Of a stretch of 64,000 bases of DNA, positions 27,815 to 37,998 are shown one piece after another (positions within the stretch are counted from its first letter, which is position 1; each line of letters starts with the position of its first letter). The position numbers and the translations under genes were made by a program. Below the pieces are notes generated by a model that was not told where the DNA came from, did no database searches, and saw only the letters and a program-made list of their open reading frames with translations. Source of the DNA: Actinomycetota bacterium (GTDB taxonomy: Bacteria > Actinomycetota > UBA4738 > JBBDHU01); contig JBBDIK010000011.1 of NCBI GenBank assembly GCA_040880465.1, positions 177,229 through 241,228 of the forward strand. The letters are read 5' to 3'.

Positions 27815-28180
27815 TCAGGAAATGAGGGAGGCGTAGATCACGAAGAATGCCAGTACGTCCAGCAACCCAATCACGACGCCGGCGGTCGCAGTGCCTTTAC
27901 CGCCCTGCTGGCCGCCGGATGCTGCAATCTGTGACTGGGCGACAATCCCCAAGATGATTGCGATAGGTCCGAGGACGATCCCGAAAACTAGGAGGCCGAC
28001 GATCGCGCAGGCGAGCGACGCGGTAGCCAGTCCGTTCGAGGTTGGTGCTGCTACCGGGGGTGGCGGAGGTGGCGCTACCACGCCAGGCGGGGCGGGGTCG
28101 GTGGCGAGGCTGCTGCCACAGTGCTTGCACTTGATCGCCTCATCCTGGACCTCTTCGGCACAGTACGGGCATTTCTTCAA
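27815..28180 (-). CDS. Zinc-ribbon + DUF4190 membrane protein
   Basis: [21 protein letters not shown], Pro linker, [10 protein letters not shown]...[27 protein letters not shown] start. Confidence 0.8.
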
Positions 28181-28189
28181 GAGCTCGTC

Positions 28190-28747
28190 CTACCATCCAT
28201 CGCTGCATTCGGCGGCAGACTGAGCATCGACCGAGCCGTAGGTGGTACCGGCCCCCGTAGCGCTGTCAGCGACGCAGAAGACATCCCCCTTCAGGCTCTG
28301 CGTAACGAGCAGGATCGAGCCAGCTTGAACGTCCCTGATGCTCACGGCGCCCTGGGATGCCGTGCTGGCGGTATCGTAGGTTAGCGACGGCTCGACGGCG
28401 GCCATCTCCTCAGGAGTGACATAAGAATATGAATCCGAGTCCGTGAAGATGGTCTTGGCTGCCACCAGGGCGTTGCGAAGTTCCGATTGAGCCAACCTTG
28501 CGGCCGCTCGGTCACGTGATCCCCGGTTCGCGAACCAAGCGCCTCCGAACACGACAGCGACAACCACGACCACTGCGACGACGGCGATCCACGCCGACTG
28601 GCTCGCGGAGCCCTTCGCCGGTCGCGGGGGTGCTTCCCCAGCGGGCACGGGGGCCGGTGCAGTGGGTTGGCGCAGATCGCTCCCACAGTGCTTGCACTTG
28701 ATCGCATCGTCCTGAATCTCCTCAGCGCAGTACGGGCACCGCTTCAA
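28190..28747 (-). CDS. Zinc-ribbon + TM + type IV pilin-like domain protein
   Basis: [21 protein letters not shown], Val-rich [43 protein letters not shown] after GGAGG. Confidence 0.75.
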
Positions 28748-28828
28748 CTTCCGCCTCCCTTGCTCTCACCCGTGGCGTGGCGAGCCGCCGGAAGGATCGC
28801 GCTGCGCCTGTGCTGACGGTCGAGGGAA

Positions 28829-35331: not shown

Positions 35332-36075
35332 ATGAGCCAAGAGGCGAACGCCGAGATCCGCCGCCTGCGGGCACGCGTACTCCGCCTTGAGGCTCGCCTT
35401 CGAGACCTCACGCAGGAAGACCACATCGACCCCGAGCTTGTTCGTGGCAACCTCGCTCGGCAGCGGGCCGACGGCGGCGTCGAGGAGTTCCCGGCGATCG
35501 TCGATGTCTTGGACCACTTTTGGCGGACCAGCCCCACACGACAGGAGGCGCTCCGGCGACACCGGAAACACGCGGCGCTCTCAGCCCGGACGCAGTGGGA
35601 GGGGTACGTTCTCTCGTCAACCGCGCTGCCGCGGCCAGGCAGCCGCTGGATCATTCGCCACCCGCTCCTGCCCGAAAACGTCATCGTCCGTCTTGGGCCG
35701 GGAGCGGATGGATTCCTCAGCGTCCTTTGGGAGGCGGAGGAGGGCCGACAACTCGGCGGGGGCGTGGAAGTGAACCTCTCCGACCTGATGGCGGTCGTCA
35801 AGGTCGAACTCGCCAGGCGCGACCTCTCGGACGATCCCGAGTCCTTCCTCCTCGGCCTCACCCGACCGCATCGCGGCAGGGACCTCGGCGAGCTGTTCTA
35901 CCGGACGCTCGGGGCCGCCTGGAGGAAGCTCGAGGCCGACCCAGACATCAACTCGCCCCGAGCCGAACTCGCTCGCTTGCTCGGCGTCGATCCGAAGACG
36001 ATCAGCGTTTGGAAGAACCGAGCCATCCAGTACGGGATGTGGCCCACTGGTACGACGGAAGGAGAAGGAAGATGA
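35332..36075 (+). CDS. Hypothetical protein with C-terminal HTH (candidate repressor)
   Basis: PRAELARLLGVDPKTISVWKNRA; ATGA-coupled to integrase. Confidence 0.65.
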   Translation: MSQEANAEIRRLRARVLRLEARLRDLTQEDHIDPELVRGNLARQRADGGVEEFPAIVDVLDHFWRTSPTRQEALRRHRKHAALSARTQWEGYVLSSTALPRPGSRWIIRHPLLPENVIVRLGPGADGFLSVLWEAEEGRQLGGGVEVNLSDLMAVVKVELARRDLSDDPESFLLGLTRPHRGRDLGELFYRTLGAAWRKLEADPDINSPRAELARLLGVDPKTISVWKNRAIQYGMWPTGTTEGEGR

Positions 36076-37265
36076 CAAGGCAACGACCCCGCGCAAAGAT
36101 TCGCAAGAAGGCGGCGGCGGGTGGACGGGTTCGCTGGTATCTCGCGATCGTCGACTCGTCAGGCGAGGAGTTGCACCATGGCGGCTTCGCCACGCAGCGT
36201 GAGGCGAAAGCGCGTGCCGTCGAGATCCTCCGAGACAACCCCGACGGGCGCCGCCACGCCTATCGCGACCTGACCGTCGAACGATTCCTGGTCGACGAGT
36301 GGCTCCCCGCGCGCGAGGCGTCTGGAAAGATCGCGCCCTCGACCCTCGAGGGGTACGGCTGGATCGTTCGCTCCTGGATTGCACCCCGAATCGGCGGCCT
36401 CCCGCTCACCGAACTCGGCGCTGCCGACCTCGAGCGGATGTACGCGGACCTTCGGAAGTCGGGGGCGCGCGGCAGCAAGCCTCTCTCGGAAAAGAGCGTT
36501 CGTAACGCGCACCTCCTCATGAGCAAGGCCCTCGCGGACGCCGCGCGGCGCGGTCTCGTGACGATGAACGTCGCGACGATCGCTGAGAAGCCTCCCGCTA
36601 CCCGGGCGGAACGCGAAGCCTGGAGCGTCTCCGAAGTCCGTGCGTTCCTCGCCGCCGCCGACGCCGATCGTCTCGGCCCGATCTGGCGGCTCATGCTCAC
36701 CACCGGCCTCCGCCGGGGCGAGGCGCTCGGCCTCCAGTGGTCCGACGTCGACCTCGATGCGAGGTCCATCCGGATTGAACGGCAGGTGCTTCTCCGCAGT
36801 CGCGCTCAAGGTGCTCGCCTGTACCTCCGGGACACCACCAAAGGACGTCGGGCTCGGACCGTCAGGCTTGACCCCGGGACGGCCGAGTCTCTCCGGGTGT
36901 GGAAGAAGGGGCAATCGGAGGACCGGCTCGCGTTCGGGGCCGCCTGGCAGACCGACGGGGGCCTCGACACCGAGTCAGCGTGGATCGTCACCGAGCCCGA
37001 CGGCCGGGTCATCCACCCGGACACCCTCCACGACCGCTTCGTTCGGGTCGCGAAGGCCGCTGGGGTCAAGCCTCTCCCCCTCCACGGCGCGCGCCACACC
37101 TTCGCGACGATCGCCCTCGAGTCGGGGGTCCGGCCGGATCTCGTTAGCCGGGCGCTCGGCCACGCTACGGTCGGCTTCACGCTCGACGTATACGTGCATC
37201 CGTCGGCAGACGAGGAACTCGCTGCCGCCGACGCTCTCGGCGCCGCGCTCGAGGCGACGCAATGA
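36072..37265 (+). CDS. int: Tyrosine integrase
   Basis: Arm-binding N-term (GGFATQREAK), GLRRGE, TTKG, HGARH, LGH, VY; catalytic residues intact. Confidence 0.95.
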   Translation: MTRQRPRAKIRKKAAAGGRVRWYLAIVDSSGEELHHGGFATQREAKARAVEILRDNPDGRRHAYRDLTVERFLVDEWLPAREASGKIAPSTLEGYGWIVRSWIAPRIGGLPLTELGAADLERMYADLRKSGARGSKPLSEKSVRNAHLLMSKALADAARRGLVTMNVATIAEKPPATRAEREAWSVSEVRAFLAAADADRLGPIWRLMLTTGLRRGEALGLQWSDVDLDARSIRIERQVLLRSRAQGARLYLRDTTKGRRARTVRLDPGTAESLRVWKKGQSEDRLAFGAAWQTDGGLDTESAWIVTEPDGRVIHPDTLHDRFVRVAKAAGVKPLPLHGARHTFATIALESGVRPDLVSRALGHATVGFTLDVYVHPSADEELAAADALGAALEATQ

Positions 37266-37296
37266 TAGTCCGCACCCTCGCGCAGAGGAACTCCTC

Positions 37297-37998
37297 CTAG
37301 CAGAGTCCAGTCTGCTTGGCTCCATAGACCGCCTGCGAGTGCGTGAAGCCTTCGCCGTACTTGGACTCCAACTGGTCGATAAGCCCCTGGCAACTGAAAG
37401 AACTGGTGTCCAAGTAGCTCTCCGCCGATTTGGCTGCCTGCTCGTTCCAGTTCACGTTGATGTGTCTTACCGCAAACACGGCGTCAGCCTTGGGAAAGCC
37501 CTCGCCATACTTGCTGGACAACTGGTCAATGAGTCCCGTCTCAGAGAACGCACCCGTTTCAAGATAGCTCTCGGCCGACTCGATGGCGTTCTCCTGGCTA
37601 ACAGTGAACTCATCCTCAAGAGCCGTGGGAGGCTCAGGAGCTTCGGTGGCAGTTACCGACGGAACAAGGTCAGGGGCCGCCACCTGATCGGCTGGCAAGT
37701 CTCCCGTAACCACCTCGGTGGACTTCTTGTCGTTCTGTCCGAGCGCGCCTGCAACACCTATCAAAACGACCGCGGCGATCACCCAGACCCACCACTGCTT
37801 CCATAGCGGACGTGAAGGTGAGGGCGTGCCGCCCCCCGATGATGTCGAGCCAAATGAAAACGCTTCCCCTGCGGGCGCAGCGGTCGGCGGAGGAGGAGCA
37901 GTCTGCGGAGATTCGGTCGATGGCAGGTCCCTACTGCAGTGCCGGCAAACAATCGCCTCGTCTTGGATCTCCTCGGCGCAGAACGGACACTTCTTCAT
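37297..37998 (-). CDS. Zinc-ribbon + TM + two Ltp repeats (superinfection-exclusion-like)
   Basis: [37 protein letters not shown]; two repeats A..SAESYL...FS..GLIDQL.SKYGEGF...AV. Confidence 0.8.

Follow-up and report, generated by a model that had tools for sequence, protein, structure and literature searches.

In a 64,000-nucleotide stretch of an Actinomycetota genome (contig JBBDIK010000011.1; this whole stretch is called the window below), three minus-strand genes with a common N-terminal zinc ribbon lie at the two ends of a 10.6-kb island of the tyrosine-integrase type, which is sited in a tRNA-Met gene. Our reading, to which we give a probability of roughly 0.55, is that these genes are independent accessory ("moron"-type) cargo for the cell envelope that share a generic N-in anchor. 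Each gene would encode a membrane protein with a predicted N-in/C-out topology, in which the ribbon, a Pro-rich linker and a transmembrane (TM) segment would replace the usual export or anchor signal, i.e., the prepilin leader in gene 2 (a type IV pilin head) and the lipoprotein signal in gene 3 (Ltp repeats), so that the outer domain would stay fixed to the external side of the cytoplasmic membrane. Common descent would account for the shared module, together with the local duplication of an anchor cassette found widely among bacteria and phages. The Ltp protein would stop the entry of superinfecting phage DNA like the Ltp of TP-J34, and the operon of gene 2 and gene 1 (a DUF4190 protein) would have its role in the envelope, with the type IV pilus or pilus-dependent phages as the most plausible target. 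For the ribbon, a role beyond anchoring is possible.

One anchor and three payloads on a tRNA-Met island

The window is high-GC DNA (about 67%) from an assembly of 1.74 Mb in 17 contigs with a completeness of 86.5%. The island is bordered by direct repeats of 55 nt (27566-27620 and 38188-38242, identity 53/55). The left border, attL, is a partial copy of the 3' part of tRNA-Met, where Rfam also gave a weak tRNA match (27567-27627), and attR is the 3' 55 nt of the tRNA-Met(cat) gene itself (38188-38262, minus strand); the Rfam scan found nothing besides this gene and its partial copy. Genome G001, of the same genus, has the empty site: a pentapeptide-repeat gene (82% amino acid identity of its product to that of the window), a complete tRNA-Met gene and a hydrolase gene are contiguous there, and the G001 sequence matches attR at one end of the site and the flank of attL at the other. 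Given this contiguous empty site in G001, the repeats enclose an insertion of 10,567 bp. The GC content at third codon positions is 0.73-0.79 in the island genes versus 0.82-0.91 in the flanks. About 100 nt inside each island end there is a copy of a 23-nt direct repeat (GCGCGGGAGAAA..GGGAGAAA; 27722-27744 and 38090-38112, 91% or 21/23 identical); the two copies would flank the att core on the excised circle, and this pair possibly represents the arm-type sites of the integrase. Genes 1 and 2 are at the left end of the island, and gene 3 is at the right end between the integrase gene and the tRNA; the end of gene 1 is 195 nt from attL and the start of gene 3 is 190 nt from attR. An earlier sequence-only reading of this DNA had placed the three genes nearest the att sites, with the order pilin-like, DUF4190, attP and Ltp on the excised circle, and the coordinates give exactly this order.

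All three proteins begin with a 25-residue Cys4 zinc ribbon, followed by the linker (20-29% Pro over residues 26-60 in each protein), a hydrophobic segment that forms the TM helix, and unrelated payloads, namely DUF4190, a pilin head and two Ltp repeats. This layout had been noticed from the letters alone, and it was borne out, with the 25 residues of the three genes aligning without a gap. The same is true of the eight copies of the module in the genome, which have 15 invariant columns; C4, C7, C18 and C21, in the knuckles CPxC and CxxC with a spacing of about 10 residues, are invariant in 8/8 copies, and zinc binding is predicted. The match to Zn_ribbon_3 (PF13248, gathering cut-off 27 bits) had an E-value of 3.3e-7 (30.0 bits) in gene 1, 4.4e-8 (32.8 bits) in gene 2 and 4.7e-4 (20.0 bits) in gene 3; although the gene 3 ribbon is under the Pfam cut-off, it still aligns gap-free with the other copies. 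The Pfam families Zn_Ribbon_1 and DZR also match the module. At the nucleotide level, the 5' ends of genes 1 and 2 are 84% identical over 69 nt, the value for gene 3 being 72%, and the run of 23 identical bases reported earlier for two of the genes is present in genes 1 and 2 (28116-28138 and 28683-28705). Motifs resembling ribosome-binding sites are found upstream of all three starts. In both stretches examined, a promoter scan found no promoter-like site, and a terminator scan gave a single terminator-like site, which is inside gene 1 and within the level of shuffled sequences.

Gene 2 (28190-28747, minus strand, TTG start) encodes 185 amino acids comprising the ribbon, the linker, a TM/alpha-1 helix and the pilin head. 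On the evidence of homology and of the structural model, its fold is truly that of a type IV pilin, with the prepilin leader missing; the pilin-like head of the sequence-only reading was not only confirmed but strengthened. The payload matches no Pfam family. Among 364 homologues, three are full-length proteins with both ribbon and head, namely P0001 (54% identical), P0002 and P0003 (about 40%), and dozens are PilA proteins with the N-methylation motif (PF07963), which are 41-50% identical over the head (E-values from 1e-17 to 1e-10). The PilA of the host, which has an N_methyl match, is 45% identical to gene 2 over 93 residues (E = 1e-17). In gene 2 itself, no prepilin leader or N-methylation motif (PF07963) was found at E ≤ 0.01, the host PilA serving as a positive control. 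In the alignment, the ribbon, the linker and a new TM helix stand where PilA has the G/FTLIE leader and alpha-1N. Gene 2 retains alpha-1C, the head and the C-terminal pair of Cys residues, which are those of "VFCVAD" and "AECSDGW" and fall in the Cys columns of the pilins.

The AlphaFold2 model of gene 2 (pLDDT 89.3, pTM 0.65) has short hairpins at residues 1-25 (pLDDT 87-90), a low-confidence linker, one continuous helix at residues 51-104 and a four-stranded antiparallel sheet with its strands at residues 135-171. With this model, Foldseek gave nothing at E ≤ 0.001, though pilins ranked first. In the VIA comparison, the top 16 rows were all type IV pilins (Z from 10.2 to 4.4), and the first non-pilin followed at Z 4.0; the best match was Thermus PilA4 (6xxd_A; Z 10.2, root-mean-square deviation 3.2, 116 aligned), and PilV (Z 7.9, 2.4, 81 aligned) and the full-length PAK pilin (Z 7.7, 2.9, 113 aligned) were also among the matches. 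A sequence search of the PDB with gene 2 returned nothing relevant, and in the protein atlas all scores were below 0.9, one cluster (T2SSG 86%, Zn_Ribbon_1 27%) being a lead only. In a tree of the head domain with 41 rows, made after the removal of eight alignment rows without the shared head, 30 canonical PilA proteins formed one clade (100/100), and gene 2 grouped with P0001 (96/88) in the remaining set of 11 rows, where further leaderless forms are found along with the host PilA; with branches this long, a finer placement is unsafe.

In the host, two PilB-like ATPases and one PilT-like ATPase are encoded in a type IV pilus locus, and pilins are present. Two further leaderless heads occur in the genome, one with a ribbon on contig C12 and one with a different N-terminal domain on C16. 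Without the leader, Glu5 and the conserved alpha-1N, a pilin is not expected to be incorporated into a pilus. Because the prepilin leader and the conserved alpha-1N are gone and a folded cytoplasmic domain is present, the gene 2 protein should stay in the membrane. Full-text literature searches, with subscription journals outside their coverage, found no description of a zinc ribbon-pilin fusion.

Gene 1 (27815-28180, minus strand, TTG start), which begins 9 nt after the stop codon of gene 2, encodes 121 amino acids with the ribbon, the Pro-rich linker and the DUF4190 membrane domain (PF13828; E = 2.2e-14, 53.4 bits against a cut-off of 35). A paralogue with 54% identity is carried by a 2.5-kb indel elsewhere in the genome. 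A zinc ribbon with DUF4190 was not found described in a full-text literature search, and for DUF4190 by itself the literature yielded only unrelated work.

Gene 3 (37297-37998, minus strand) encodes 233 amino acids from an ATG, with two Ltp repeats behind the ribbon, linker and TM segment; the longest form of the open reading frame (ORF) starts at a GTG at 38040, and the ATG was chosen because the homologues begin with MKKCPF. Lipoprotein_Ltp (PF07553) matched in two stretches (E = 2.7e-35, 120.7 bits against a cut-off of 23.2), and two PHROGs annotated as superinfection exclusion also matched (phrog_4980, E = 9.1e-45; the second, E = 5.4e-41). The genome search gave two matches, and gene 3 is the sole Ltp-domain gene in the assembly. 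It has no lipobox, because the hydrophobic segment is not followed by Cys. Among the 120 closest Ltp homologues, gene 3 included, a ribbon is present in 17 and a lipobox in at least 19, whereas 74 have a hydrophobic N-terminus of another kind and for 10 no anchor was called; the count was made with a crude regular expression, and some of the 74 are probably missed lipoproteins. Since the homologues vary in this way at the N-terminus, the anchors of Ltp domains, which may be lipid, plain TM or ribbon-TM, are interchangeable. The Ltp of TP-J34 is said to target the tape measure protein. This Ltp is a lipoprotein held outside the membrane that stops DNA injection, and its gene adjoins int and is considered by the authors to be a moron that was spread horizontally (PMC3952083). 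By analogy, the gene 3 protein is predicted to block the DNA entry of superinfecting phages, and probably does so. The phage exclusion suggested by the sequence-only reading is upheld for the Ltp family by PF07553 and the PHROGs, but not as a layered joint system. A literature search found no description of a zinc ribbon with superinfection exclusion and a transmembrane segment.

Distribution and shuffling of the zinc-ribbon module

At E ≤ 1e-3, a profile of the eight copies matched 27,634 representative clusters among 1.84 billion representatives; at E ≤ 1e-10, there were still 5,774. In the best 150 clusters, a list biased toward multi-ribbon proteins, DZR and Zn_ribbon_3 occurred in 148 and UPF0547 in 108. 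Among the payloads joined to the module are DUF4190, PspC, bPH_2, DUF805, DUF4352, Mycobact_memb, tRNA_anti-like and Imm_superinfect, and many payloads belong to no family. Such a catalogue had been proposed as a check of the sequence-only reading, and it shows that the module is a generic Zn_ribbon_3/DZR/UPF0547 ribbon, fused to many payloads in phages and chromosomes alike. The earlier picture of a "plug-and-play" module is thus apt for the evolution of domain architectures, in which the module stands on unrelated payloads in a wide range of proteins, but with 27,634 clusters it does not describe a new dedicated system.

In viral contigs, two pattern searches matched 115 and 27 stretches, from which 80 and 22 loci were kept; a module ORF is present in 99 of the 102 fetched loci, and these ORFs represent 59 distinct proteins. 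About half of the viral proteins are soluble ribbons of 48-53 amino acids and the remainder have the ribbon-TM-payload layout, with a Pfam payload in only three of the 23 long ones (Mycobact_memb in two and tRNA_anti-like in one). The module is also present in several PHROGs without an assigned function, and a pattern scan of metagenome contigs gave at least 596 module stretches. The soluble family, a ribbon with a short acidic tail (…TDEEYLEEARQKVW…), recurs across numerous viral contigs with a length of about 40 kb (L023-L096; e.g., L074:8001-8150).

In the source genome, a hidden Markov model of the three island copies found eight copies with a strong match (E ≤ 1.6e-12) and a further two with a weak one. 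The strong copies are distributed over the tRNA-Met island (three), a second island in a tRNA-Asn gene (two), the 2.5-kb indel (two) and a synteny break relative to G001 (one), and none of the eight lies in DNA syntenic with G001. For three of eight copies in 1.74 Mb to fall in one 10.6-kb stretch, the Poisson probability is about 1.9e-5, a value calculated post hoc. At E ≤ 1e-5, the module matched nine times in this genome and 0-5 times in each of 40 relatives, with at least one match in 30 of the 41 genomes (one genome of the tally is flagged unpublished). The 2.5-kb indel (L001:7385-9892; C11, about 79.4-81.9 kb) lies between an MFS gene and serA, is absent in G001 and G002, in both of which these two genes abut, and contains a divergent zinc-ribbon pair (one with a polytopic payload, the other with DUF4190) and a GNAT gene; no mobility gene was seen in it.

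For the relatives, 20 of the top-scoring module loci (from 19 genomes), each with flanks of about 10 kb, were compared with 20 control stretches at round-number positions. Tyrosine recombinases were sought by a three-round jackhmmer search seeded with the integrases of the two islands, which as a positive control found six integrase-like ORFs in the source genome, those of both islands included. No integrase-like ORF was found near the module loci (0/20) or in the controls (0/20) by this search, which is a limited test that covered the tyrosine recombinases only; tRNA genes were nearby at 1/20 module loci and in 3/20 controls. Sixteen of 21 module proteins of the relatives (counted with a regular expression) carry a conserved domain of about 55 residues, here called FGIWDR, after the ribbon, and the module genes of the relatives are thus mostly one chromosomal architecture of the order. 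An enrichment of the module on mobile DNA, the absence of which the sequence-only reading had named in advance as an outcome that would refute it, is seen in the source genome, where five of the eight copies are on the two tRNA islands and two on the 2.5-kb indel, but the relatives (0/20) speak largely against it. The FGIWDR domain has the motif F-x-H-S-G-x-R-Y-x-L-G-Y-x(3)-F-G-I-W-D-R ... R-F-P-R-T-D-x-G-W and no Pfam match; it is cytoplasmic, often between the ribbon and the TM segment and at times doubled (L151:4759-5442 on C16, P0006 and loci L169-L188).

The second island, in tRNA-Asn(gtt), is split by a contig break into C1:1-3186 (L150) and C12:1-3587 (L003). The C1 side has the full tRNA-Asn, a tyrosine integrase gene (PF00589, E = 3.8e-22) and an adjoining HTH_17 gene, and on the C12 side the 3' part of tRNA-Asn is repeated exactly over 45 nt; the site is empty in G001. 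Its two zinc-ribbon genes (C12:282-761 and C12:2067-3026) lie 0.5-3.3 kb from the 45-nt copy, near the far end of the element, and the integrases of the two islands are 32% identical. A third integrase-like ORF (C2:52390-53748, minus strand) adjoins a tRNA-Val gene (C2:52277-52351) near a contig end and may mark a third island; the zinc-ribbon module had no match on contig C2.

On the tRNA-Asn island, L003:50-328 and L003:1835-2113 are 98.6% identical over 279 nt ahead of two different payloads. From about position -232, the two copies agree perfectly as far as module codon 13, after which they diverge; this is direct evidence of a recent duplication or recombination of the promoter and the 5' part of the module onto different payloads, with its junction inside the module. 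This promoter-plus-module duplication shows how anchor cassettes pass between payloads. On the tRNA-Met island, the likeness is restricted to the coding module. Nucleotide identity among the module copies mostly follows amino acid identity. For adjacent pairs, identical codons are used at 14/20, 18/22 and 16/18 of the identical residues, which is above most non-adjacent pairs and fits local duplication or conversion; two unlinked pairs, gene 1 with its C11 paralogue (15/20) and gene 3 with the C1 copy (15/21), fall in the same range. Four pairs share identical runs of at least 23 nt: the C12 pair, with 39 nt, the C11 pair, genes 1 and 2, and gene 3 together with the C1 copy, to which it is not linked. 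The 23-nt run of genes 1 and 2 was considered as a special recombination substrate and rejected, equal or longer runs being found between other, even unlinked, copies. The proposal that the conserved 5' DNA could promote shuffling is thus not supported by this run, and what speaks for it is the 279-nt duplication with its junction inside the module.

Backbone and other cargo of the island

The integrase gene (36072-37265, plus strand; PF00589, E = 1.7e-21; phrog_1, E = 3.7e-62) has a predicted start inside the ORF 35520-37265. On the minus strand are genes for an excisionase-type HTH_17 protein (34756-34950; PF12728, E = 4.6e-14; TIGR01764, E = 1.1e-10), an HTH_31/HTH_3 regulator with Pfam matches that is repressor-like (34947-35213), and an AAA_25 (RepA/RecA-like) ATPase (33435-34526; PF13481, E = 1.5e-6, 28.4 bits against a cut-off of 27; phrog_695, DNA polymerase/primase, E = 1.2e-3), which is probably the replication protein of the element. 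An ORF of 86 codons (31353-31613, minus strand) weakly resembles the P27-family phage small terminase subunit (TIGR01558, E = 2e-6, 27.8 bits, under the cut-off of 45.6; phrog_83, E = 1.7e-4). No capsid, portal or tail PHROG matched among 15 ORFs scanned. By its gene content, the element could be either a satellite of a phage or what remains of a prophage. Relatives of the backbone are all distant: one metagenome-assembled genome of Solirubrobacterales, and 33-38% identity in nine of 293 other genomes of the order (one of the nine is flagged unpublished). In the fetched loci of these distant relatives, a module gene was found in 0/7.

Three further cargo genes, all on the minus strand, stand next to gene 2. 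The first (28829-30094, with a predicted start) encodes a conserved actinobacterial hypothetical protein of about 421 amino acids that matched nothing in Pfam, PHROG, NCBIfam or PADLOC. Its atlas clusters scored 0.99 and 0.97, with PDDEXK_4 at 0.90 and Mrr_cat at a TM score of 0.48, a lead only by which it is possibly a candidate PD-(D/E)XK nuclease; some of its relatives are fused to TerD, and it may be a putative defence gene. The second (30205-30849) encodes a putatively secreted protein of about 214 amino acids with a signal-peptide-like N-terminal segment, and the third (30846-31244) a putative membrane protein of 132 amino acids with two hydrophobic segments; neither matched a family in the same four databases. 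Outside the island, a pentapeptide-repeat protein with a lipoprotein-like N-terminus is encoded next to tRNA-Met (38313-39131, minus strand); its gene is chromosomal, because it is kept in the same place in G001.

Alternative explanations and known systems

Several observations weigh against the reading as independent cargo. The clustering of module genes exceeds what that reading needs, with three on the island, adjacent pairs at three places of the genome and tandem arrays in 7/80 metagenome loci. A metagenomic protein of 250 amino acids (L209:3479-4231, plus strand) has the ribbon at residues 1-25, DUF4190 at 60-117 (E = 9.1e-17) and a C-terminal head homologous to gene 2, which hints at joint work of genes 1 and 2; the fusion may alternatively be a further case of anchor swapping. 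A second candidate for such a ribbon-DUF4190-pilin fusion, P0086, was rejected, its likeness to gene 2 being N-terminal only and without a pilin family match. To call the ribbon a mere anchor may undersell it, because the N-terminal ribbons of ZitP and GltJ bind specific partners: the ribbon of ZitP (Caulobacter) is a localisation signal that binds PopZ, with an outer domain needed for pilus biogenesis, and that of GltJ (Myxococcus) binds its own linker and MglB. Furthermore, the identity of the element as a satellite is weak with the terminase-like match under its cut-off, and PADLOC found no defence family among 12 island proteins scanned, the sole match being weak, between the AAA_25 protein and mad8 (E = 0.0056).

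The alternative that survives best takes genes 2 and 1 as a unit acting on the host type IV pilus, in which a membrane-locked pilin head with a DUF4190 partner would compete with or cap the assembly of pilin or serve as a decoy for pilus-binding phages, with Ltp as a separate exclusion gene. The two genes lie 9 nt apart in one operon, the L209 protein has ribbon, DUF4190 and pilin head fused, the head is 45% identical to the host PilA with both outside the clade of 30 canonical PilA proteins (100/100), and the host has PilB, PilT and pilins. A precedent is given by prophage-encoded FimU-like and PilA-like proteins, which provide anti-phage defence in Pseudomonas and occur in Xylella prophages (PMC12952977). 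However, the fusion is a single example in which DUF4190 may be just another membrane anchor, leaderless heads are found off islands too (the C16 locus), and from general pilin biology a leaderless head is not expected in the pilus. We consider a dedicated pilus unit unlikely.

It is somewhat less probable again that the three genes are ordinary host proteins of envelope homeostasis, carried by the island as passengers without a phage-related role. Paralogues with the same payloads do occur in the genome, namely the DUF4190 protein with 54% identity and the pilin head on C12, and the module genes of the relatives are chromosomal, with 0/20 near an integrase and one architecture in 16/21. On the other hand, Ltp is a phage-associated exclusion family with no other copy in the genome than that of the island, 0/8 strong copies are in DNA syntenic with G001, and the module is frequent in viral contigs.

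The sequence-only reading had joined the three proteins in one cooperating envelope system, in which the shared ribbon would co-localise or co-assemble the proteins or signal for a layered phage exclusion. For it speak the three copies on a single 10.6-kb island, the recurrence of tandem arrays (one metagenome locus, L216, has three module genes in a row), the localisation or partner-binding functions of the ZitP and GltJ ribbons, and the exclusion family to which Ltp belongs. However, the module is generic and mostly single (73/80 metagenome loci and 18/20 loci of the relatives), the related backbones lack it (0/7), the trio was not found together elsewhere in any of the homologue, viral or metagenome searches made, and the whole backbone separates gene 3 from genes 1 and 2 when the element is integrated. 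Assembly or signalling of the three proteins through the ribbon is thus very unlikely, and with a generic module the idea of a special three-part machine is removed. Just as improbable, in our estimate, is a bolder variant in which a mobile cassette of promoter and zinc-ribbon anchor, carried by the mobile islands of this lineage, would recombine within the module onto outer domains to make membrane-locked surface decoys, the leaderless pilin head with DUF4190 being the clearest case, which without polymerising would guard against pilus-dependent phages or shut off piliation, and Ltp forming a second layer.

Taken as carriers of independent envelope cargo, the island and its genes resemble several known systems in part. 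With the phage-inducible chromosomal island (PICI)-like satellites and tRNA islands, the element shares a size of about 10 kb, a tyrosine integrase, excisionase-type and repressor-like helix-turn-helix proteins and a replication-type ATPase, as well as a weak small-terminase-like ORF, accessory genes at the ends and structural genes that were sought without a find. It differs from such satellites in that the terminase and primase matches are under curated cut-offs and the backbone relatives are only distant.

As for the anchor, the ribbons of the "YvbJ" type and of TcaA (Staphylococcus aureus) likewise start at the very N-terminus with CPxC...CxxC, and a linker, a TM segment and an outer domain that varies come after it. 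The proteins described here are not members by score, the TcaA model (NF053815) matching only their N-terminal 28-33 residues with 15.5-18.8 bits against a cut-off of 550 (E from 6e-4 to 6e-3), and the pilin head and Ltp payloads and the clustering on tRNA islands are peculiar to this locus; a literature search on the TcaA zinc finger gave nothing relevant. ZitP and GltJ are also bitopic proteins with a cytoplasmic N-terminal ribbon, a linker, a TM segment and an outer domain. However, the ribbon of ZitP is zinc_ribbon_5 (PF13719), and neither this family nor DUF3426 was among the Pfam matches at E ≤ 0.01 here; furthermore, the partners PopZ and MglB are not expected in this host.

Gene 3 has in common with the TP-J34 ltp gene (Streptococcus thermophilus) the two Ltp repeats and the position next to the integrase gene at the edge of an integrated element. 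It differs in that its product is not a lipoprotein and, without a signal peptide or lipobox Cys, has the ribbon and TM segment as its anchor, and in that the host is of high GC and the carrier is a 10.6-kb island in which no structural phage genes were found.

The closest counterparts of gene 2 are P-FimU of Pseudomonas phages and P-PilA of Xylella prophages, which are also pilin-like proteins of mobile elements with about 45-50% identity to the host pilin. P-FimU becomes part of the pilus, and proteins of this kind guard against pilus-binding phages (PMC12952977). In contrast, gene 2 is leaderless, has a cytoplasmic domain and is predicted to be membrane-locked, so that its putative mechanism would be a different one. 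The zinc-ribbon module was already catalogued, and the new variant is the leaderless, ribbon-anchored pilin head on a mobile island of a piliated host. If this view is true, the membrane-locked pilin head would be a different use of a fold that is already known in the anti-phage defence of prophages (PMC12952977).

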